Shown: positions 41,086-56,443 of the stretch, piece after piece | Layout: every line of letters starts with the position of its first letter | Numbering within the stretch: the stretch's first letter is position 1 | From: Piedraia hortae CBS 480.64 | Taxonomy: Eukaryota | Length of the DNA: 64,000 bases | Assembly: GCA_010093745.1 (NCBI GenBank) | Contig: MU005960.1 | Span: 1-64,000, forward strand | Direction of reading: 5' to 3' | Program-made: the position numbers and the translations under genes | Notes under the pieces: model-generated | What the model saw: the letters and a program-made list of their open reading frames with translations, nothing else | Databases searched by the model: none | What the model was told of the DNA's origin: nothing

Positions 41086-42369
41086 CAAGCCTCAAGAGTG
41101 AAAGGGACAGCGCAAACAGCAGACGTTTGGAGGACTGCCGGAGGAGAGGTGGTGCTGCCTAGTTTATATTGGAGAATGTCCAAAGCTCTTCGGAACGGGG
41201 CATGGTATCTTTCAACTTTTCCCACTGACCAGTGGGCCTAGATACGCCGACAAGCAGACCACCTCACGGGGGTAGCCAAAGTGCACACATGGATGCGTGC
41301 AAAACCCCTCCCATAATTGAGAACTCCACATCTACCCACTTCACTACACGCTTTACCAGCCGCAAACGTAGCATCAGTTGATGTACTACGGCCGTCCCTC
41401 TGATCAGGCGGGAGAGCTACATCACCGACTACATCACCAATTCGGCTGGCAAAATCGAGATACTTACCTCCGATGACCGCTACTTCCGATCGCATGGTAC
41501 TGCTTCTTTGCGGAGGGTGAAGGATTGAACAAGACTTCTGCACTATGACGCCCTTTACAGTCAACATCACCTCAAGGGTATTGCCACGTTAGTCTTTCCA
41601 CGAAGTGCTTCAGAGATCGTCACCAACGGACGCACTGTCCGCGCTGTTATCACTGCGGGCTTCGACAAAATGCCCCTCCATGACTTCTTTCTGCCCGAAG
41701 AGTAATGTCTCCACAACCTAGTTGCGCATTCTTGAAGCAATTCACGACCCTGCCAACATCAAAAACGAGCTGCCCAATGGGCAAAATTGCTCCAAGAATG
41801 TCGAACAAGCCAAAGATATCATAATCGACGGCCGAAGCCATCCATCCGGTGCCCTTCCCTTTTCTTAGTTAAGTTCATCGACCCTTCTTCAAGGGCCTGG
41901 ATATATGTAAGGGCTTGCATAAACTACATTCCCTTCAGTGGTTCCAATTCCGATACGTTGCGATACGAGCTTGCTACCAATGGCAATGGCATCAAGACAA
42001 TGAGTATTGTCACCGAATACAATCGCATCCATGCTTTGTGTCAGGCGCGAAGTCTTCAGAAGCTGCTGCAGACGAGCCACAAGCGAGGAGAAAGAAGCGC
42101 CGGCACGAGAAGCAACCCACTAGTTGGATATTGGTATATAGTTGGAGGCTGAACTCAATCGTTAGAGTTCGTGAAGCATCATGTGAAACTGCTCAACTAG
42201 TAGACCAGGAGACATGGACGGTGGGGAGGGGATTGAGAAGGTACAGAGAGAGTTGGGGGCATCAATAGGTAGGCTTTAGAGAAAAAATCGAATCATACGC
42301 AACTCATCAACTCAGATCATGCGAGCGTTCATTTACTTCAAAAACTTCAGAAATTTAGAGAAAAGGAAA

Positions 42370-44139
42370 TCAATGCTTCCTCTTCGGTAACGCCGGCGCA
42401 CCTGCTGCCCAAAGCATAAACGAGCTTGGCTTTTTCCCCCCGGAAGAGGAATGGTGCCTCTTTTTCTCCGCTGGTGGGGTAAGAATAGGCGGAGATACCG
42501 CTGCCGGCGCAGGTGCCGGTGCATCAGCGGGAGGAAAGAGAATGGGTACGACGGGAGGTGGAGGCGGAGGTTGAGCAGGGGCGGCATGATGTCTTTTCCC
42601 GTGAGATTTTTTCCTGTGGGGATGTTCGGCTGGAGGTGGAGGAGGCGCGACGGGTTCGGCTGCAGGCGCAGGGGCCGGGGCCGGGGCTGGGGGATCTGGT
42701 TTAGGCTTCTCTTTTGGAGGCGGCCAGAGACGCATTTCGATGTTCCAGCCGGGCTTGACGGAATATTCCCAGATTTGGGGCAAGATGTTCTCGCCATCGG
42801 GCCCAATGAGATCGTACTGGTGATTCTTGACTTGGTCGCTCACGCCATCGATGTGCAAAAAGGCTTGCTGGATGAGCTCGTCCACTCCCTTCCACGTCTT
42901 GCAGTGTTTCCAGGGAAACTTAAACTTGCGGCTGATTGCGTCTGTAAATTGGATGGGTGGCTGGGCGTCGTCGGGTGGTGGCTTGTTCTTTTCAGCTTCC
43001 GCCTCGATTTCTTTTTGCTTCTTCACCAGTTCCTCGTTCGCCTTTTTTTGTTCAGCGAGTTCCTTCTCCTGCTCTTCGTGCGCCTTCTTGGCCTCTTTTG
43101 CGGCTTCTTGTTTTGCTTTGGCGGCCGCTGCCGCGGCCGCTTCCGCTACTTCTGCTTTATGCTTCGCCGCCTCCTCTTCCCTAGCTTTGACCGCTGCGTT
43201 TGCCGCCGCCGCCTCTTTAGCTTCTTTTACCCGTTGCGCCTCCTGTTTGGTACGGGCTTCTTCCTGCTCTATAAGCAACTTTTTCAACGCCTCGAGCTCC
43301 TTGCTCGGTTTCTCATCGGCAACGACAGTCGGCTCCTTTGGCTCTTCTTTTGGTGGCGGTGCTGCTGCAGGCATAGCCTGGGGAGGGTACCATGCCGCGG
43401 ATTGCACTGGATATGGATATGATGAAGGCATCGGCTGCTGAGGTGCATATACCATATCAGTATAGCCAGGAGGATTCATATAACTGCCCGCTCGTGGCGG
43501 CACATGGCGAGTAGATGGTGGGTAACCCCCATATTGAGGAGCATGATAAGGAGAGGCGGTATAGCCATTTTGAGCAGCGAAGCCATATGAACCTCCATAG
43601 CCGGTAATGAATGGGTTCTGGCCCACATTGAAGCCGTCATGTGACGTTGACACGAGAGCCTGTGCGGGTTGCGGGAACTCATATCCATAGCCCGCGGGTT
43701 GTTGGTGCGTTCGCGGAGGAACAGGAGCACCGGCAAATGGCTGCTGGCCATGCGGGTCCTCGTAGTAGCTGGACGCCAGATCGCTGGTGGACGGGTCAGA
43801 CGGAACCCGCACAGGTTCCTCTGACCGCAGCGGGCTATTAAAAATTTTCCTACGCGGCTCGGTGCGTCCCGCGGCTTGGCGGGTGCGCGTCTGAAAGGTG
43901 CGCGGTGCGCGCTGACTCGCCTGGGGTGGGAGTTCGGGCACGGGCGGGAAGCGGTTTGGACGCGACACCGACTCCGATGGGTCTAAGTCGTCCTCGCAAG
44001 ACAAGTGCACAAAACTCCCAGAGCTGGACGTGAAGCTCGTCAAGCTTTCGTAGGACGGTTGGCGGTGGCTGCTTGCGTGCGGCCGTCAGCAACACGATAG
44101 AGACCTACCGAGGAATGGGAAAAGGCAAACTCACGGCAT
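42370..44139 (-). CDS. Pro-rich/coiled-coil protein with a fungal ubiquitin-like domain; exons 44139-44135 and 44068-42370
   Basis: PIQFTDAISRKFKFPW..CKTW...LIQQAF...YDLIGPDGENILPQIWE motif. Intron GTGAGT..GCTGAC..CAG (44134-44069) links ATG CC to the long frame. Confidence 0.85.
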
Positions 44140-44360
44140 GAAGACTGTGAGAAGCGAGAGAGGGGGACGACCAGCCAAGGCTGATACCGTATTTGCCTCA
44201 GGCTTGATGCACTGCTGCCTGAGGCGTGTCACCCTAGCAACCCGGGATGTGACATGTGGCACAACAGGGATCAGGCGGGGCAGTGCGCCAAGCCTTACAG
44301 AATCAATGCTAGGTGTGAGAGATATTGTGCGAGATATGTGTGAGAGTGTGAAAGGAATTA

Positions 44361-45635
44361 TTATTCAGTGTACACGTCGATACAGTCCTCATCCTCCAAC
44401 TCCGTTTCACCAACTATGCTGTTCGGATTGAGTGCCTCCCCGTCTGCCTCCAATATCAGAGTCTGCTCTTCAGGTACGTTAAAGTGCTGTCTGGTAACGT
44501 CGATAATCTTGGAAATCTTGGTCACGGGTCGTACGCGCAGTTTGTACGGCTCACGCACCGTTTTGAACCGCAGGCTAATGCGGAAGTTGTTTCCCGCTTC
44601 CGGATCTGGTTCAGGCTCACCTTCGGGCTCTTCCTGCGTTGGGCGCGGCTTGAGGCTTTCTCTTTGCAGCTCTTCAAAGATCTCCTGCGTTACCGCCCTT
44701 AGTGCGATCTGACCCACTTCCCCGTCGTCTCTGCCTTTCATCCTGAGTTCACCATTCTGGCCAACTTCCAGCCCAAGATTGCGACAGGTTGTGATGTCGT
44801 GCACTCTACGCATCCCATGTATAAGGAATATCTCGTTGAAACCCACACGTAGACATGCTTGTCGTTTGCACCATGCCAAACGCACTTCCTGTAAGTTTTG
44901 CGTAACTTTGCGTGTCACAATGATTGGTTTTGTGCCTTCTATCGGGGACGAGATGAGCAGGGACACGGTTGGCACAGTATCTCGCCGGGACGCATCAGGC
45001 GTTTGCGACGTTGCCACTGATCGCCTCATACGGGCCCTCCGCGCCAGGGCAGCAATATCTGGGTCAGAGTCGGAGTCTGACTGCGGAACCTTGGGCTCTT
45101 CTACTTTTGGCTTCGCGTGAATAACAGGCAGCGGAGGTGGCACCTTCCGCACAGGCGAGCTGCTTCTATCGGAAGGCCGCTCTGGTGCAGCCTTGGGCGC
45201 AATTGGCTTATATGTTGTGTGTGCCCGGAGAACTGGCTTGGGTAAAGACTCCGCTCCGTTCGGCGTTATTCGTCTTCTCTTGGTCCCATCTCTCTGGACC
45301 TTTTGAACTTGAGCAACAATTTGAATGTCATCATCATCGCTCTCCACCACCGTGGTCACCGTCTGAGTTTTACCTGGAGTTTGCGATGCCACGCCGTTCT
45401 GAGCAACATGGCGATCAAACGCCTCCAATGGCGGCATAACGTCGCCTTCCGGCGTGGGCGGCTGCGGCGTTACTTTTTTCTCTCCGTTCTGCATTGCTTT
45501 TTCCTTGTCGCGCTCGCGCTTTTTCCTATGTTCTTCTGCTATAATCTCGGCGTATGTTGTGGAGTGGCTGAAGATGTTTTCGCGTGTAGGGGTGGAGCTA
45601 TTTTTTGCCCAGTCCGGTCGTTTGAACAGCGACAT
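44361..45635 (-). CDS. Esc2/Rad60-like tandem SUMO-like domain protein
   Basis: Starts MSLFKRPDWA, has acidic SIM-like DDDDIQIV, and ends in a SUMO-like domain (DGEALNP...ETELEDEDCIDVY). Confidence 0.85.
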   Translation of the reverse strand: MSLFKRPDWAKNSSTPTRENIFSHSTTYAEIIAEEHRKKRERDKEKAMQNGEKKVTPQPPTPEGDVMPPLEAFDRHVAQNGVASQTPGKTQTVTTVVESDDDDIQIVAQVQKVQRDGTKRRRITPNGAESLPKPVLRAHTTYKPIAPKAAPERPSDRSSSPVRKVPPPLPVIHAKPKVEEPKVPQSDSDSDPDIAALARRARMRRSVATSQTPDASRRDTVPTVSLLISSPIEGTKPIIVTRKVTQNLQEVRLAWCKRQACLRVGFNEIFLIHGMRRVHDITTCRNLGLEVGQNGELRMKGRDDGEVGQIALRAVTQEIFEELQRESLKPRPTQEEPEGEPEPDPEAGNNFRISLRFKTVREPYKLRVRPVTKISKIIDVTRQHFNVPEEQTLILEADGEALNPNSIVGETELEDEDCIDVYTE

Positions 45636-45818
45636 GACGACAGCAACTTTCCAGAAGCGATTCAAAAGCAATTTAGGGCGACCAATGTCCTTTTCACAAC
45701 CATGCCGCCTGTCGCGGAGTCGACAACGGGGCGGAAGCCTTCCGCACTGGAGCTTCCCGCCCCACTGTGGGGAACTGACAGATGCACAACTGCCCGAACT
45801 CGAACTACAATCCACAAC

Positions 45819-46165
45819 ATGAGCCCAACGGACGAAAAGTCATCGGATCCTACCGGGTTTCTGAATGAAGCTATTGGAACCGCGGTGACGATCAAACTGA
45901 ACTCAGGGGTTGTCTATAAAGGTAATGGTTTGTTCAGCGCTGCATTGAAAGTTTGTTCATCCGAGTTGTCCAGGTGAACTCCAATCCGTTGATGGTTACA
46001 TGAACATTGCGCTGGAGAAGACAAGGGAGTTTGTAGATGGCAAGATGCGGAGAGAATACGGAGATGCCTTTGTCAGGGGCAATAACGGTAAATACAGGCC
46101 CGCCTCTGCGCTGTGTAAACTGCTGACCGAATGTTGCAGTCATGTACATATCTGCCGATACCTAA
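45819..46165 (+). CDS. LSM6: U6 snRNA-associated Sm-like protein LSm6; exons 45819-45921, 45974-46087 and 46140-46165
   Basis: Spliced product DPTGFLNEAIGTAVTIKLNSGVVYKGELQSVDGYMNIALE...YGDAFVRGNNVMYIS. Confidence 0.93.
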
Positions 46166-46221
46166 GTGCTGAGTGTATCGAACAGGCAGATTCTATGAAG
46201 CGTATATTAATGGTAATGAGG

Positions 46222-47233
46222 CTACGTCGCCTTTGCTGGATCCTCGACACTGAACACATTTTTCTTCCCCTCCTGGGGCACTTTGCTGGTCCACACGATA
46301 TACGTATTCCCATGCACCGCCACCTCTCCCTTTATGTTTTTTTTTGCATCCTGCAGAGCGTCCATGACCTCTCTGCGCGTTTTCTGACCAAACAGCATTA
46401 GCCAACTTTGAGGATGGAATTGTCAAAGATCTACTCACCTCGCGCCTCTCACCCTGCAGGACAGAGATATGTGAGAGGGTGGAGTATCTATCCCAGACGC
46501 GATCTTTATCCATCCACGTCTCAAACGGCTCAACGTGTTCTCCCAACGGCAACGAAAAGTAGACATCTTTCCCGCCTTTCACGAGCGCCAACGGCGAGGA
46601 CTCGAGCTGATCATCAAATACCTGTCGCCACTTTTCATGTCTGAATCGGGATTCGTTGTCATCAAATGACCACGTCAGCTGATGAACGCGGCTCTCCCAC
46701 GGCGTAGCCGCATTATGATCCCGCGCGGCATTGTAGTCCTCGATATTCCACACTAAGACAAGCATGCCACGAGGTTTCAAAACCCTTTTCAACTCTTTCA
46801 ATGAATCCTCCGTCGCGAACCAGTGGAAGGCCTTTCCCAGCTTCAATCAGCCAGATAATTCCCACACCCAGCTACAAACGGAATGACCCACCTGAGCAAC
46901 AATAACAGCATCCATGCTCTCATCTTCGAGAGGAATATCCTCAGCTGCGCCCTTGAGGATTTTTACCCCTTTAAGCCCTTTCTCAGTGAGTACCTCTCGC
47001 ATCTGATCATGTGGTTCGACGGCGACGATATCGTATCCCTCTTCACGCCGCGCAAGCAACTCAGTAAACTTTCCCGTACCCGCTGCCAGGTCGAGGATGG
47101 CCGCGTGTTGGCGCCCCGCAACTCCCGCTTTGTCCAAGACGTATTGCACTACTGTGTGTGAGTACGATGGTCGGTAGAGGTCATAGTTCTTGCTCGCAGC
47201 GAACCCGGTTTGTGCTGAGTGGTGAAGGGGCAT
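46222..47233 (-). CDS. class I SAM-dependent methyltransferase (type 11), 3 exons
   Basis: YDLYRPSY, LDLAAGTGKFT, AVEPH, VAQ/AFHWF and LKPRG motifs. Introns near 46891-46838 and 46438-46384; the last exon ends ...PAKAT*. Confidence 0.9.
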
Positions 47234-49037
47234 TTTGCGGGTTTCGAAGTGGGGTTTCGATGAGCGGTTCGTTGGTAGAGTATGATATCACCTTTGTACC
47301 TTATGCATAAGGCGTTGTACGCGATGATGTAATCAGTGATTCGGCAGGGGAAAAGTGTTAAGAGGGCTGCTACCTGGTTGAGAGTGGTATCTGATCTAGA
47401 GCTATCTTTCTAAAGGTATCATGTGTGGCTGACGCCAGGCGAATTCGGTAGCGATTGGCTGTTGGAAACTAACGCTCATCCCAAGAGCCATCACGAGAGG
47501 TATTGGAGTGCTGTTCTGCGAATTCATCTGATTTGGACTGCTGATCTGACAGATGGGGGTCTGGCCATATAGGAAGACTGTTTGGAGAAAGCTTGATGTG
47601 TAAATGTCCAGGACGCTTAGAAAACAAGTTCCTATCTATGGAAAGAAATTCCCACGGATAAACGTTGTCTCCTGCACCTGTTATGTTCAAGTACCTTGCC
47701 TTCAAATCACAACTTGGGGAAGCAAACAACCAGCGAGGTAAGCGATACAAATATTTCGTTTTTATCCATGGTTGTGACCCCGCCCCCACCAATCTCGCCA
47801 GAGAGCGGTGGAGGCAGAGTCGCAACCACAGATTTTCCCATGCTGACACCGGGGTGAGCAAAAGCATCGTAGTGAACGTTTCGAACTGAGACAACCGCGA
47901 GCCCACGGACGTGAACAAAAGGTTTTTGGAGTCGGTGAGAACTCAGCCAAATAGAGAGTTGTTCCTCCTCACAGACGTCCGGCTTTGTTCTCGAACATCT
48001 TGGCTGCGCCCGCATAATCCCGATGACGTGCAGATGTGGCGCCTCTTTCAAATACGGCGGCAGTGGGGTGAAATACTAACGCAGAGCGGTTGAGACTAGG
48101 GTTATATTTAAATAGCAAAAACGATGATCGACACGCGTCAAGGACCGATGATATCTGAGATTCGTCCCAGTTGTGGGCCCTTCCTATTTCGTTGCATGCG
48201 TCTGTAGATTACCCAATAAGTGCGGGGCCCCGGAACTCGTAGTTTCGGAACGGCTCCCTGCAGGTCCGAACATTCTTATACGCGGCCGTCCCGGGACTAG
48301 GCAAGTGTAGCGCACTGACATGGGCAGGATGTCTCTCAACTTCCCCTGAGCCCTGATGATCAGACAGTTTCGGGACTTGCCAGATTGGCCCACAAGGGTC
48401 CTCCTCCGCCCAAGCACTGCCAGGTACTGGCAGTCAGGTGAAATGAAAAAAAAAAAACAATTGAACTATGACAGAGTTCTGGACCGATCAACCTGACTCG
48501 GAGAAGTGTGACAACTGATCAGAGTGGATGGAGGTACAAGATGCGTGAGGTGGCGGTGGCGGTGCCTGGACATGTGAAGGTGTCGCGCACAACAGAGCGC
48601 ATGCAGATGGCTGCAAAGAAGAACATCCTTGTTGGTTGAAAGACATCGAGGGTGAAGAAGAAATATCATCTACTGTACTTTAGCAAGAATAGAATTCGGG
48701 CGGTAGCCGAAGATGTGCGTCGCCCCAACAAGATTTGGCGCGTCCAAATAGAGAGTCCGTTAGTGGTCCGTGGGGCGAATGCAGCTCTCCATTCGTCCAT
48801 TCGTATTCACAGCTCCGATCCCGACAAAATACACTCCTCGACTTTCTGCCAGTTTTTATTTTGCTCGCTACGTCTGGCTTCAGTGTTTGCTTCAGTTGCT
48901 TTGGTCCAAGAATAACACCCGGCCACTCCCGCCCGAAGTGTTCCCGGAGTTCTCCCGACCCGCCACCGCCCCGCCCGTCGTCCCTCGCTCGAGCGCCGTC
49001 TGTCACGTCACACGTGGAACACTGGAAGGGGAAGGAC

Positions 49038-51560
49038 ATGCCAACGATTAAATCAGTATTTCAGAGGAGAAAGAGCGGAAACTTGACAGAGTTGGCCGTC
49101 CAGTCTTCGTTCAGGGTTTTGGATCAGCACGAAAAGCCGCCGACAACCGCTCCGCCCGGTTCGAGCAATGGCAATAGCAGCAATTCCGAGCGACCACCAA
49201 GCCAGCTGCGCCGCCTATTCCAACCACGGCGACAATCGGGAGAGCCGTCGGCCGTGGAGTCCAGCTGGTCAGCGACTCCAGATCGTACCAGTGGAGGAAC
49301 GACCAATTCGGGCTCCAGCGGTTTCTACGACTCAGCGAACACGTCTGCCCGACATAGCTCGTCCACGCTGCCATCATCTGTCGACAATGAGCGGGAGGAA
49401 CCGAAGCCTCGGACCATGCGGCGGGCGGATCCTCCTACCCTTCCATCGCCCTCACATCTCCACCCTATCCCTCAGTCTACCCGGGAAGCACCGGTTACAA
49501 TTCATGAAGAGCCACAGAGAAGTCCCGGCTATGGTCGCTCGGCAACTTCGGCCAGCGACGCGACGGTGCAGGGCTCTTCAACGGACTTTCGACGATCGCC
49601 GCGACCCCTGAATGCGATGGATGAACAATTTAAGGGCGCCGCTCCTGTTTTCCCTGCCCGGACACAACCAAGACAAACGTTTGTTCCTCCACCGTGGCCG
49701 CCGAGACGCGAGGGCGCCAGCTCACCTTCTGACAACGAAGGACCGGCATCCCCGGACCCATTAATTCCCGGTGGATCGGGCTTTGGCTCTCCAACACGCG
49801 ACGAGGCGAGAACAAGGCCAATACGAGGAACGGGCAAGGCTGGGTATTCTTTGGTTGGAGATCGCGAGTCTTGGTCAGCCGGCAGTTCGACCGGTGGAAA
49901 GCCCGATGACCGACGGATTCTGCCGCAAACGGACCGACGGGAAATCCCGCATCTTTCCGCAACGCCATCGACGCAGTCGTTCCGGTCCGCCAACGCAGGC
50001 TCTTGGCACGAGTCTGGGGATGATCTCTTTGTCGCGGGATCCAGCGCAACAACACCCAGGGCTAACAACGCTTTGGCAGTAGAGCCGGACGAGGCGCTCT
50101 TTGGTTCGTCTTCCATGGGCCCCGCAAGTCGCGCGGTCCGACCCGGCGGGGCACATGCTCGTACGCCGAGTGCTGCGCTGAAGAGGATGACATTGGCCGA
50201 ATTCGATGAGCTGCGACGCACTGACGACGCAGACGCCGACGAGGACGAAGAATCGCGAGCAGACGATGACGAAGAAGAGGCGGAACATGGCCGCAAAATG
50301 GCCCGGCAGCGGGCGCGCAACGAAGCCAACATGTCGGTGTACCGGCAGCAGATGAAGAAGGTGGCTGGTGGAGGGCTTTCGGGACTACCGTCATCACGGC
50401 CAAACATGGACAGGTCTGTCAGTGGTCCGGCATTTGGTATGCACATGGGCGGTATGGCTGGGCCCCCGCCGGCCGAGGCCTTGCGCGGGCGGCGAGACGA
50501 CGACGACGACGACGTCCCTCTTGGCATCCTGCAGGCGCACGGTTTTCCCGGCGGCGTTCCACCGTCACGGCCTCTGGAGAACGATATTTCACGGCGATCG
50601 TCTGGCATGTCGGTAGTGGGCGGAGACGGTGGGGCGATCCCGCCTTTTGCTAAGAGACTTCCGCAAGACCCTTACTTTGGCGCAGGGCTCGTGCGGCCGA
50701 CGCAGAGAGAGTCGCTCGGCTTTGCAGCGCCGTCTGAGTATGGCATTCCGGCTTCGTCGCCGTCTCCGGGCGGCTTGGTCGGTGTCATCGCCGACGAGGA
50801 ACGGGCGAGGGCGGCTCGTAGGGCAAATCCCAACCAAGCCAGCGGCTTCATGCCACCACCTAACCAACGCACACTGAGCATGAACATGATGCCGCTCGTA
50901 CACACACCGACTGGTATGCAGTGGACCAGCGCACCGCAGGACCCGCAGATGCAGCAGTTTATGCAGCTCCAGATGCAGCTAATGCAGAATATGCTCGCTC
51001 TGCAGCAACAACAGCAATTTGGCGTCGATTATACTGATGGACGGGCTATGAGCATGATGGGCCCGCCATCCGGCCGCGCCATGAGCGTCATGCAGCCGAT
51101 GCGTTGGGAAGCCGGCGCCAACGCCAGCAACGTAGCTCTTCCCCTGGGACCAAATTTACCGCGTCGTCCAACCAGTGCGATGCCCAACATGGGCGGAGCC
51201 GCTGCCTATGCACCTTCCATTGCGCCCAGCGAACGGAGCAACATCGGCCTTCCTAACCGCTACAGACCAGTGTCAACCCTGGATCTTAGGAGTATGTCTA
51301 CTCTTGGCGTAGATACCACGGCGTACAGTAAGCAGCAAGCCTCCCCGGACACAAATGTCAAAACAACAGTGCGGGTTGTGGACAAACCAAAGGGAAGCCC
51401 CAGGATGCAGAGACCACAGTCTTCTTCGGCGCTGAACAGCGAAGAGGACGAAGAGGGTTGGGCTGAAATGGCCCGCAAACGGAATGAGCAGAAGAAGAAG
51501 TTTTGGGCCAGACGGTCGTCGAGGATCGCCGAGGAGGCCCCCACGGCTGTCTTGGGGTAG
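49038..51560 (+). CDS. large low-complexity fungal protein of unknown function
   Basis: 840-aa ATG-initiated ORF with conserved-looking blocks (DDDVPLGILQAHGFP, LPQDPYFGAGLV, GGLVGVIADEERARAARR, PSIAPSERSNIGLP.RYRPV). Confidence 0.85.
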   Translation: MPTIKSVFQRRKSGNLTELAVQSSFRVLDQHEKPPTTAPPGSSNGNSSNSERPPSQLRRLFQPRRQSGEPSAVESSWSATPDRTSGGTTNSGSSGFYDSANTSARHSSSTLPSSVDNEREEPKPRTMRRADPPTLPSPSHLHPIPQSTREAPVTIHEEPQRSPGYGRSATSASDATVQGSSTDFRRSPRPLNAMDEQFKGAAPVFPARTQPRQTFVPPPWPPRREGASSPSDNEGPASPDPLIPGGSGFGSPTRDEARTRPIRGTGKAGYSLVGDRESWSAGSSTGGKPDDRRILPQTDRREIPHLSATPSTQSFRSANAGSWHESGDDLFVAGSSATTPRANNALAVEPDEALFGSSSMGPASRAVRPGGAHARTPSAALKRMTLAEFDELRRTDDADADEDEESRADDDEEEAEHGRKMARQRARNEANMSVYRQQMKKVAGGGLSGLPSSRPNMDRSVSGPAFGMHMGGMAGPPPAEALRGRRDDDDDDVPLGILQAHGFPGGVPPSRPLENDISRRSSGMSVVGGDGGAIPPFAKRLPQDPYFGAGLVRPTQRESLGFAAPSEYGIPASSPSPGGLVGVIADEERARAARRANPNQASGFMPPPNQRTLSMNMMPLVHTPTGMQWTSAPQDPQMQQFMQLQMQLMQNMLALQQQQQFGVDYTDGRAMSMMGPPSGRAMSVMQPMRWEAGANASNVALPLGPNLPRRPTSAMPNMGGAAAYAPSIAPSERSNIGLPNRYRPVSTLDLRSMSTLGVDTTAYSKQQASPDTNVKTTVRVVDKPKGSPRMQRPQSSSALNSEEDEEGWAEMARKRNEQKKKFWARRSSRIAEEAPTAVLG

Positions 51561-51997
51561 ATGTACATTTGAACACTTCCATTTGATTAGATGTGCGTGG
51601 AGCAGAGTACGTGTAGATGGACGGGTGGGGGATGTAATGGTAATTTTTTTGAAGAATCCAAACTTTTGCATGGGAGCGTGCTATCATATAAGTATCTGGG
51701 GCTGTCATTTCCATGGAGATTGAAGCTAAGGCTAAAGTTGCTTTGACTTGTCAACATTCATGCTTACAAGTACATATGTCGGTGCCAAGTCTCCCGCAGC
51801 AGGTAAAGTGCCTCGTGAATCAAACCTTCATCCAATGTCAACTGGACTCATGGCAGGCGGTTGGCAAGTAAAGAGAGATCGAACCAATAATCTTTGCGTT
51901 GGCTATATATATTCTACGCGTCTGTCTGGGCCACGCCAACACGGACTCTACTCTACGGGTCCTCCCCATCTCTTACGTTCTCTATACGGCGTGTTTA

Positions 51998-52053
51998 CTG
52001 GGCTCAAGTCAGCAAAGCGGCTCAGGCAGTAGAGAAAACAGAAATCGACTCAC
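51998..52053 (-). other. predicted 56-nt intron in the eRF1 3'UTR
   Basis: Minus strand reads GTGAGT (52053), a pyrimidine tract, GCTGAC branch and CAG (51998). Size and signals match the coding introns in this window. Confidence 0.75.
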
Positions 52054-52170
52054 GCTCGTTCTTTACGTTCACGGTGCGGCTGCAACGTTCGACCGCGACT
52101 TCCCCCCGCGGCGCGGCGATTGGGGGGGAGGCAGAGGAGAAGAAAACGCGCCACTCGGCGAAGATGTCAG

Positions 52171-53463
52171 TCAATCGTCATAGAATTCATCATCAGAATC
52201 CTCGGCTAGCTGCTCAAAGTTGAGCTTGTACCGCAGCATGGCTCCAATGCCGCTAAAGCCGTGCACAAACTGGTCGCCCTCGGCCGAGCGGTCCGAGACA
52301 AACTCCAGCTTGGCCCCAAACTCTTGATACTTGTCGGCGAGCCATTCCAGGAACGGCTGCTGGTCGATGACCTCCATCTCAGTGTTGGTCTCTTTGTCAG
52401 TCAGCTGCTCGCGGTCTGGCTGTGCACCATTCGTGTGGACGATGACCGTCGAACCAGAACTGCTTCTTAGCTCCCAGCGCGTAATCTCAAGGTTTTCGTA
52501 GACAATAAGCGTCTCGGCAGCACCGGCTTCAAGCGCTTTGAGTGTATCATCTATGCCGTAACACACTCTGCCGCTGTCCTGGCTGATCTCGTCAAAATAG
52601 GCGCCAATGAGTTTCTTCTCCTGGATAAACTTGACATTGGAGAGGGTTTCGGCAGCGAGTTCGATGGCTTGGTTGAACCCGTTCTCGCCGCCATAACTGA
52701 CATCTACCACCTTGATGACGCGCGCCTGAAGACGCTGGTCGAACATATCGGACTGATTTAAGTCGTTTTTGAAATCAGCCGAACCGGCGAGAATCAGCCC
52801 AGCCACATTGACCTTATCGTTCGTAATGAAGTTCTGTACCGCCAATTCGGCGACCTTGCGCACGTAATTGTGACGTTTCTCCTCGCGAAGACGTGAAAAC
52901 CGGAGCGCCGACTGGCCACCGCGGCCGTGCTTCTTGGGAAGATCGACACTCAGCTTGTGAATGATCTCGCGGGTGTTCCCCGACAAGGTGCCCAGCAGCA
53001 CACCGTTTCCGTCCATGACTATGAATCCGAACTTCTGGTCTGACTCCAGCAGCTCGCTGAGAGCCTCCGTGTGGAACTTGTTGTCGCATAGGTACAGCGA
53101 GGTGTTGATGGGCTTGAAGGGCTCGAAGTCAATGTTGATCTTGCGCTCTTTTCCTTCGCTGGTGACGATTTCACCGCAGTAGACCACGAGGCCGTTGGGC
53201 GGCACCTTGTTGTACAGCTTCAGTCGCTGCTGCGTCGACGTAATGGCCGACAGTACCGACAGCCTGTTCACCCGGGACTTAATGTTGCTTGCCGTGCCGT
53301 ACTCTTCTGCCAACATCTTGTTAATGCGTGAGACTTGGTCTTTGGGCGGGATAATCAGGCTGATCATCGATGTGCCATTACCGCGTGCCGCTTCCAGCCG
53401 CTTGATCAGCTTCTTCACCTTCCACATTTCAATATTCTTGTCTGCATCATTAGCCTGCGACAT
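52171..53463 (-). CDS. SUP45: eukaryotic peptide chain release factor 1
   Basis: TASNIKS, YLCDNKF and GRGGQS motifs. Intronless CDS with ATG at 53463. Confidence 0.98.
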
Positions 53464-53950
53464 CGTGGCGCTCTGTGTTCGCTCTGTGTTGGTGTGCAAT
53501 CGAATTTTTTCGAAGTGGCCGCGGGGGGTGAAATATTCCGCTGCGGGGTCTTCAATGACTCATATTATGTAAGCACCAGTAGGCCGGCAGCGCCCGTGAT
53601 CACACTATATCGCATCTAGGTCTCGTCATGACCTTCCTTCGAGCGTCATGACCAATTATCAGGGCTAAAGCTTCCATGAGTCATGACATGAAGTGCCCTT
53701 TTTTCGTGCAACTGGACAGCGAGAGATTGAGTAGTAGGAACAATCGGCCTGAAACAGAGGTAAAGCCTCCGCACCTGTAAAATCCTTACTCCTAATCCTA
53801 TGGCGTAAGTCTTAGAACAGTACTCGTAGTTTATGTCCCACAAAAATTTGACCTGTCCCGATTCGGTAAGCGCCGATGACTGGCCGATACCGGGTATCAG
53901 ATGTTTATGAGATGTTGACGCTGAAAAACATGCTCTAAAACCTCCCCACC

Positions 53951-54524
53951 ATGCATGATAAACCCTGCGTTTGCATCCATGTCTACCACCGCGATCGCCT
54001 TCCTGTGGGCAAAGAGAATCACAAGAAATACGGCAACGGCATTTACCACTGGGCAATCTGGGTATGCCCCAAATCTGCCGACGCACTTGATCAAACCACC
54101 ACTTTCGATGCAACCGACGGCCTTCGTGTCACGCCAGAAGGCAAGACCATCAATCCGGACCTAAGCAGGTGGTATCGTCTGCGCAAACATGAAGACCCGA
54201 CCAGGAACCCAAAGTTTCTTACCGCTATCTATATAGGAAAGTTGCCCAAGAGCATCACCGTAGACAATGTAGAGAAGATGTTGGGGACGATGCCCCTGCC
54301 ACGCAAAACTCATGTCCCAAGAGAGAGCTTCGTCTCCTGGGCACGAAACGCTATACTAAGGTTGCAGAAGGAAGGCTGTGTAGATAGATTTTGATTTTGT
54401 TGAGGTTATGAAATTTGCCATACAGCAAGGCGGTTTGGCTATCATGAATGGGCTTTCGGGGGACTCGGATATGTGGTTTAAGCATTTCAAGAAACCGAAG
54501 CGGGGTGGCTCTTGTGGGTTGTAA
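53951..54524 (+). pseudogene. frameshifted fungal protein with YHWAIWV and 'S-[C>F]-VSW' motifs (DUF6914-like by recollection)
   Basis: The ORF stops at 54394 inside a T4 run. Deleting one T extends it with FDFVEVMKFAIQQG... to TAA at 54524. Confidence 0.55.
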
Positions 54525-56443
54525 ATGTTTGGCCACGCTATATTGGGCCTTGATATGGCAGCTGGACTTTGCACTCATCCTTGTGTTAGCAATCTGTGCA
54601 ATCCAATCAGCTCTACCAGCACTTGGATGTCGATATTCCATGTCCTTCTCATAACTTTCACTAAGCGGTGCAAGCTGCAAGTCATGAGTTATATCCCCCG
54701 AAAACTTGGAAAAACAAGTGTGTGTCAGAACCATGGGCAGTGAGGCAGAGAAGTTGTTCATATCTATTCTTTTATGAAACTGGTGCAGCTCTAGGATTTG
54801 TGGAGAAATTCTCCCTTCATCAAAGAGGTTTGGCTGCACGCCTGGGAGTACGAAAACACCATCCCGAGAGTATTCCTCAAGGTAGAGAGTTGCTTGACTC
54901 TGCACTTTCGCCATGATTGGTAAATGAACTGGAGTAGGGTGCATGACTCCAAGTTATTCATGCGTAGAAACCTGTTTCATACTCATCATAGCCCAATGGT
55001 TACCACTCGAAACATGGACCTACAAAGCAGCACGCATTATAACGCTACGACTTCACTAGTATGCGAGCATGCTCTCTGCGGTCGGATGCTAGAAACCCTG
55101 GTGGGAAAGTTTGCGGGGTGTGAGTTCGTGGTTCCGTATTTTTTTCAAGGAGAATGAGGCGGTATTAATTGGAGAGGGAGGGGAAAGGCATCTTGCGTGG
55201 AAGCTTGGGTTCGGATGAGATGGGTTTTGATGGAACTTCCTACTTTTCCTCTCGTGTGGATGTTTGTGTGCCCAGGTTTGTCACACACGTTCGTGAACTA
55301 GGTGCGCACGCGCCCCAGCATGCGAGTGGTGCCATATAAACAAACAAACTACTGGCTTCTGTCAAGGCGCATAGTTTCAATGGAAGCAAGACATGATAAA
55401 AGGGAAATTAAGCAATGTTTGGGTACGCAGTGGTGAATTTGCCAGTGTCCGGAAAGCGTACAGAGGGAGATGGTTAGAAAATGAGGAACTGGCTTCCCCT
55501 ACGTGCTTTGGCGTAGTTCCAACTAGAGTGCTAAGACCAGTTCCGACAGAAGCGACAACAATGCCTGTGAATGCGATCACTGTTTAGCGACTGCTAGACG
55601 CTAGCACCATTCCAACGCTCTATATAACAAGCGCCTGGCTCAGCGCAAGGTCGTCTCGGGTCTCAAGCATCCACATGAGGCACTTACTGTCTAGTGTCCG
55701 AACCGTCGTTCGGGATGCCACTGTACACCTTCAGCTGTGCAGAAGATGCACACCAATCTGTCAAGGAACAGCTGTATAACGACACCTATGCCAGTGATAA
55801 TGACACAAATTCTACGTCACGGAACATGCGAAGAAGATATTTGCACAATCAGTAACTGAGCTTTGGGTTGTTGACTTATCGTCTGCTTTCCCATCATCTC
55901 CACAACATGGAAACAAGGCAGAATATAGCATAATTGTCTACCGCAAGGCTGGTTCAGTGATTATCAATGCACTCGTCAAGTCTTGCGACAGGACAAGATG
56001 TGTGAAGAGTCGATAGAGAAGATCGCCTCCAGTATCGTTATGCAAGACCAGAGCGTTGTACTGATCAGGTTACAATAAAAGCCGCACACACGTCCACGGT
56101 ATCACTACAGTGACAGACCTCAGGGGGGGAACTCGTTGCTTTCGACGGGAATTTAAGAAGTTGGGAACAAGCCAAAAGTGGGCCCACGCAGGTCGGGTTT
56201 TGTCGGGTCTTGAGTTGTGCAAATTGACACGGCCGACTCGCACTAAGCTTCTTGCCCACTTTTGACATCTCCGAGCTTGACAAGAACACCACAAAAACAC
56301 ATCAAAAACACACATTCGCCTGGATCTCACCGTCTCTCTGCACGCTGTCTTGTTGTAAAGGTTCCAACTACCGCTGAATTCTAGTCGTAGCGACAATGCA
56401 AAGCAACTCACACGAAAACTTCAACACTCACTCGAACATTACG

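Follow-up and report, generated by a model that had tools for sequence, protein, structure and literature searches.

A probable readthrough-NMD feedback circuit at the 3' end of the sole eRF1 gene of Piedraia hortae

Autoregulation of eRF1 by readthrough and NMD is, as such, an already published circuit. The erf1 gene of Neurospora crassa is reportedly autoregulated by readthrough together with 3'UTR-intron NMD, as Kurilla et al. are said to have described in FEBS Lett in 2020. Going by the title of that work, it shares with the case described here the gene, the filamentous ascomycete host and the combination of a leaky stop with a 3'UTR intron. In angiosperms, the 'intronic RT-NMD' 3'UTR of eRF1-1 was assigned three defining sequence features, and the EJC is placed 20-24 nt upstream of the junction, according to Nyiko et al. 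(2017, PMC5397192). As regards the stop itself, Firth et al. (2011, PMC3159437) describe type II readthrough signals in which UGA-CGG or UGA-CUA is followed, beyond a spacer of 7-12 nt, by a 3' stem. In Stiebler et al. (2014, PMC4207609), UGA-CU was sufficient for readthrough in Ustilago maydis reporters and the fungal context is given as UGA-CU(A).

The window analysed is the whole stretch of 64,000 nt from Piedraia hortae CBS 480.64 (GCA_010093745.1, contig MU005960.1, positions 1-64,000 of the forward strand). The eRF1 gene and all parts of its 3' end lie on the minus strand. The coding sequence (53463-52171) is an intronless open reading frame of 430 aa, and its product matches PF03463, PF03464 and PF03465 (eRF1_1, eRF1_2 and eRF1_3), all far above the cut-offs. 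Only one eRF1 match was found in the genome (16.9 Mb, 132 contigs). The first stop, TGA at 52173-52171, is followed by CTG ACA; with CUGA at +4 to +7 (52173-52167) it is of the leaky UGA-CU type. Behind it, an in-frame extension of 33 sense codons (52170-52072; 68% GC) encodes a Ser/Pro-rich peptide and ends at a second UGA, followed by A, at 52071-52069. A 56-nt GT-AG intron occupies 52053-51998, with the donor GTGAGT, a branch motif GCTGAC at 52013-52008 and the acceptor CAG. It starts 117 nt past the first stop and 15 nt past the second. The sequence-only reading had described this layout (UGA-CUG, 33 open codons, a second UGA and an intron at 117 and 15 nt), and all its numbers proved exact. 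A three-codon uORF at 53563-53552 (minus strand), about 90 nt upstream of the eRF1 start codon, may lie outside the mRNA.

Evidence from RNA was taken from a single run, X1, available as contigs, which cannot give the spliced share. Over 42000-56000 the contigs contain six GT-AG joints within 14 kb, and X1 therefore holds RNA. One joint, 51997/52054, removes exactly the 56 nt from 52053 to 51998 and has 123 letters on its shorter side. A loose end with 23 nt of poly(T) was observed at 51875, in genomic sequence that is not rich in A. The joint and the poly(T) end together therefore establish that the 3'UTR intron is spliced and lies inside the transcript. The junction 52053/51998 that the sequence-only reading had proposed is thus present in RNA, and the two outcomes that it had named as fatal were not observed: the intron is spliced out, and polyadenylation occurs not before 52053 but 123 nt beyond the intron. 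The last exon (51997-51875) is 123 nt long and contains a TATATA run at about 51912-51904. After splicing the 3'UTR measures 240 nt, and the second stop lies 15 nt upstream of the junction and 138 nt upstream of the poly(A) site. No X1 joint falls inside the coding sequence, and by both sequence and X1 the 3'UTR intron is the sole intron seen in the eRF1 transcript. Neither of the alternative donors at 52066 and 51976 is joined in the X1 contigs, which show presence and not absence. Likewise no altered letter appears at the stop codon in these contigs, which drop rare variants.

A divergent small gene on the plus strand (53939-54394) has weak matches to DUF6914 and DUF6540, and a low-depth plus-strand GT-AG joint in X1 near 53757/53808 may be its 5'UTR intron. 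On the other side, a convergent, low-complexity ORF of 955 codons (48693-51560, plus strand) is transcribed in X1 and has no Pfam match; the distance between its stop and the poly(A) site of eRF1 is 315 nt.

All three sequence features given in PMC5397192 are found in P. hortae eRF1. A spliced intron, 56 nt long, is located more than 50 nt after the stop, namely at 117 nt. The stop stands in a context which, as sequence, is of a readthrough type, UGA-CU and not the plant CARYYA. The same text places the Arabidopsis intron 130 nt past the stop, against 117 nt here, and the next stop less than 25 nt upstream of the intron, against 15 nt here. Plant eRF1-1 is further alike in having a readthrough context and a tail peptide that is apparently unconserved. 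According to that source, the plant context is CAAUCA (CARYYA type) while that of P. hortae is CUGACA, the plant 3'UTR is 378 nt as compared with 240 nt after splicing, and plants also keep canonical eRF1 paralogues whereas the P. hortae genome gave one eRF1 match. By the 20-24 nt rule the EJC is predicted to sit at 52077-52073, where it would follow the first stop by 94-98 nt and closely precede the second. As regards the machinery, UPF1, UPF2, UPF3 and Mago are encoded in the genome; a search for Btz/CASC3 gave no match in the genome and was uninformative.

The layout was compared with chance within the same genome. Taken by itself, the open frame of the eRF1 gene is no surprise and is explained by GC content: in 72% of shuffles the frame likewise reaches to less than 50 nt from the intron, and downstream of the stop it is frame +2 that stays open longer (48 codons). 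For a wider sample, 128 ORFs of at least 250 codons were collected from 464 kb; 19 which probably end inside introns were dropped and 109 were kept. Among these 109, seven end in TGA-C and three in TGA-CT, and a strong candidate downstream intron was found for 12. The full layout, comprising TGA-C, an intron more than 50 nt away and a frame open to within 50 nt of it, was found in one of the 109, which is eRF1 itself.

A metagenome scan yielded 80 eRF1 loci. Of these, 32 were kept as relatives, 28 filamentous-ascomycete-like and four basidiomycete-like, the labels being read from C-termini and a tree and not from annotation; the remainder, four duplicate or truncated loci and 44 loci of other lineages, was set aside. 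In 12 of the 32 the last codon is interrupted by an intron, which was resolved beforehand. The set holds no close relative of P. hortae, the best protein identity being 88%. The stop is TGA in all 32 relatives. It is followed by C at +4 in 28 and reads TGG onwards in four (L045, L065, L067 and L068), in which UGA-UGG replaces UGA-C while the hairpin described below, the open frame and the intron geometry are retained. Without any intron call, the readthrough frame exceeds both other frames in length in 32/32 relatives, and over all 33 rows its median is 95 open codons as compared with 17 and 6 in the other frames. Among the loci set aside, the yeast-like L006 and L031 show no such layout; the more distant loci L072, L076, L079 and L081 also end in UGA-C and have 14-42 open codons.

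The introns of the relatives are predictions, and the splice scorer separates them poorly from antisense controls (6.4-21.8, as high in the controls). When the top pick was taken uncurated for the 32 relatives, the geometry was present in 23 and failed in six, the intron lay less than 50 nt from the stop in two, and one could not be classed. The curated set of 3'UTR introns consists of 24 rows, 23 relatives and the P. hortae window. Nine of the 32 loci were excluded from it because they are probable cDNA, are truncated or lack a convincing intron. For five (L005, L009, L071, L073 and L077) the donor used was ranked second or picked by hand. In these 24 rows the intron begins 117-400 nt past the stop, and P. 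hortae has both the shortest distance and the shortest tail. The next stop is less than 50 nt upstream of the junction or beyond it in 24/24 rows (23/23 relatives). The same geometry is found in 0 and 2 of the curated rows in the other two frames, the shuffle expectation being 5.7; the loci are related and the counts are hence not independent. The sequence-only reading had offered conservation of the stop-intron spacing as a check; on these predicted introns the geometry is conserved in the relatives beyond the frame and shuffle controls. Eight relatives show the very arrangement of P. hortae, with the next stop 13-36 nt upstream of the intron. Six of the intron calls are independently supported by a peptide motif of the tail that begins exactly 11 nt past the junction in 6/6. 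Coding introns are present in many relatives and absent from P. hortae eRF1. In one relative, the predicted eRF1 3'UTR intron contains a C/D-box snoRNA (L048:1880-1973; RF00335, snoZ13/snR52; 59.2 bits in Rfam), and a stretch of similar appearance is present in the long intron of L049.

The segment following the stop was also analysed for RNA structure. The sequence-only reading had pointed to a GC-rich segment able to pair, and the runs do exist and can pair (C7 at 52128-52122 with G6 at 52107-52102, minus strand). Three folds of this region gave z values of +0.71, +0.59 and +0.11 against shuffles, and in the minimum free energy structure of the first of them the C run has no pairing partner. 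A structural role for CCCCCC/GGGGGG was thus rejected, with z about 0 in all three folds. A long stem from +10 to the second stop, obtained on folding minus the first 12 nt, was rejected as well, being equalled by 138 of 200 shuffles. What is left is a 4-bp hairpin, CGCC/GGCG, of -5.0 kcal/mol, 10 nt past the stop (52160-52149, minus strand).

The relatives, by contrast with this, all carry a stem of 5-9 bp, which begins 9-14 nt past the stop (32/32). It takes the form CCUCGY/RCGAGG or close to it in 26 of the 28 ascomycete-like loci (11 nt past the stop, for example at L069:2886-2902; L002, L003 and L007-L010 are included), and the form GGCUC/GAGCC in the four basidiomycete-like loci and in L004 and L005. 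Covariation in the main type is thin: one pair shows a double change in 2 of 14 rows and four pairs are invariant. A covariance model built from 14 of the relatives' loci matches 29 loci at 30.5-63.6 bits; its best match in the P. hortae window is 6.1 bits and covers the stop context only. A stable stem about 7-14 nt past the stop is accordingly not found in P. hortae, which has the 4-bp stem only and folds like shuffles. With reference to the description of type II readthrough, P. hortae is alike in its UGA-CU, and the relatives in their UGA-CGG, CAG or CAA and the stem at +9 to +14; P. hortae differs in having CUG instead of CUA and no stem better than chance.

A second, bulged stem, pairing CAGA with UCUG, was recognized in 14 of 29 rows, with a doubtful register in two. 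It lies at about +30 to +70 nt (L003, L004, L005, L010, L013, L015, L017, L044, L050, L051, L053 and L077), and CAGA/UCUG is followed by a 2-nt bulge and more pairs, some of which appear to change together. It is absent from the P. hortae window. A scan of nine loci including P. hortae gave no Rfam family at the stop region and none for either stem.

The tails of the relatives comprise 48-144 codons where spliced. A motif [LV]-R-[SNH]-[VM] occurs in 15 of 29 ascomycete-like rows, in 11 of them at most eight residues from the tail end, and in 0/29 in each other frame; the pattern was drawn from the same sequences, and the shuffle expectation of 0.36 therefore flatters it. In its longer form S-x-[LV]-R-[SNH]-[VM] it is seen in L007, L008, L009, L013, L015, L035, L044, L048, L049, L051, L069, L071, L073, L075 and L077, and variants occur in L002 and L003. 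Among codon pairs encoding the same residue, 226 of 344 differ in sequence, and the differences are mostly synonymous. By codon position, 219 differences fall on the third as compared with 132 and 54 on the others. This third-position bias points to selection on the tail peptide of the relatives, and such conservation speaks indirectly for the occurrence of readthrough among these fungi. In some loci the motif precedes the intron, and in others it follows at 11 nt; the intron has therefore moved or been gained twice. Three genomic loci (L008, L013 and L015) have tails of 113-133 codons with hairpin and motif and no convincing 3'UTR intron; their tails differ by a 60-nt in-frame indel. The P. 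hortae tail gives no score with the motif (P 0.8). Its end resembles a motif copy by eye, a likeness that was rejected since there is no score. It shows no similarity to the relatives' tails beyond chance, save to 1/23 at P 0.03.

Taken together, the 3' end of the sole eRF1 gene is best read as a negative feedback circuit of readthrough and NMD, and a probability of roughly 0.7 is given to this autoregulatory reading. Splicing of the 56-nt intron should leave an EJC about 95 nt past the stop. Since the spliced 3'UTR is only 240 nt long, the intron is a plausible NMD signal. When eRF1 is plentiful, ribosomes would terminate at the first UGA, the EJC would stay in place and some of the mRNA would be degraded by UPF1-3. 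[quoted passage not shown] Low eRF1 would thus stabilise its own mRNA and high eRF1 destroy it, because eRF1 competes with the near-cognate tRNA. As proposed in the sequence-only reading, this circuit is supported by the layout, the splicing, the poly(A) site, the conserved geometry and the presence of UPF1-3 and Mago; the structural role of CCCCCC/GGGGGG fell away, and the hairpin of the relatives is unmatched. As those hairpins are missing, leakiness in P. hortae probably comes mainly from the UGA-CU context. The 33-aa tail is probably a by-product, and the outcome of readthrough probably mRNA rescue and not a targeted isoform. On sequence evidence P. hortae has the shortest and barest version among the loci examined.

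This bareness can also be read as decay. The gene would then hold a relic of an ancestral circuit. Loss of the hairpin would have brought readthrough down to an irrelevant level, and the intron would be neutral, favour expression or hold the mRNA down at a constant rate, with no feedback involved. The unmatched hairpin model, the absence of second stem and tail motif, and the length of the tail and of the stretch from stop to intron, both the smallest in the curated set of 24, all agree with it, as do the GC content that accounts for the open frame and the longest single end branch (0.14) among the filamentous-ascomycete-like rows of the tree. That hairpin, second stem and tail motif are lost or reduced is equally compatible with decay and with streamlining. 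A relic is nevertheless considered unlikely: UGA-CU alone is a strong context in a fungus (PMC4207609), and it stands at only 3 of the 109 sampled stops; the intron was retained and is spliced in a gene without coding introns, unlike many relatives; and the next stop remains within the permitted zone.

The remaining rivals concern what the open frame is for, or how it is opened. Readthrough could serve an extended eRF1 isoform with a functional tail, for instance a degron or a docking site, protection from NMD being secondary. The motif in 15/29 ascomycete-like rows against 0/29 in other frames with mostly synonymous codon differences, and its retention in L008, L013 and L015 without a convincing intron, speak for such an isoform in the relatives. 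The P. hortae tail, however, gives no motif score (P 0.8) and resembles the relatives' tails no more than chance (bar 1/23, P 0.03), and extended plant eRF1 was inactive in termination assays (PMC5397192), which leaves this explanation quite improbable. The frame might instead be opened by A-to-I editing of the stop or by selenocysteine insertion. Stop-loss A-to-I editing exists in some fungi (PMC13123824), but no altered stop letter is seen in X1, whose contigs drop rare variants, and fungi are without selenocysteine machinery according to PMC4207609. The conserved C at +4 and the stem at +9 to +14 match signals of ribosomal readthrough (PMC3159437), and both routes are regarded as scarcely credible.

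A more tentative, layered reading goes beyond the autoregulatory one. The fungal signal may combine the stem at +11, the bulged stem at about +35/+60 and a tail selected for a short C-terminal motif, with extended eRF1 being tagged (degron or docking) in many filamentous fungi besides the clearing of the EJC; P. hortae would be a minimal version, stripped of all three layers, in which the loop depends solely on UGA-CU and intron spacing. This is a possible but rather doubtful extension. The bare form is particular to P. hortae, and the second stem and conserved tail motif of the relatives may be new. A fungal eRF1 hairpin or tail motif appeared in no title or abstract beginning found, and the Neurospora paper or supplements may describe them.

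If the loop works in P. hortae, homeostatic control of a termination factor would extend to a fungus that has a compact genome and is distant from Neurospora by sequence, and a leaky UGA-CU with a well-placed intron would suffice for it. The relatives supply testable parts in the form of two conserved stems and a tail peptide motif. If the layered reading is true, the P. hortae gene would be a ready natural control for the contribution of each layer. The tail motif suggests that in some cases readthrough yields something other than the inert by-product described for plants.
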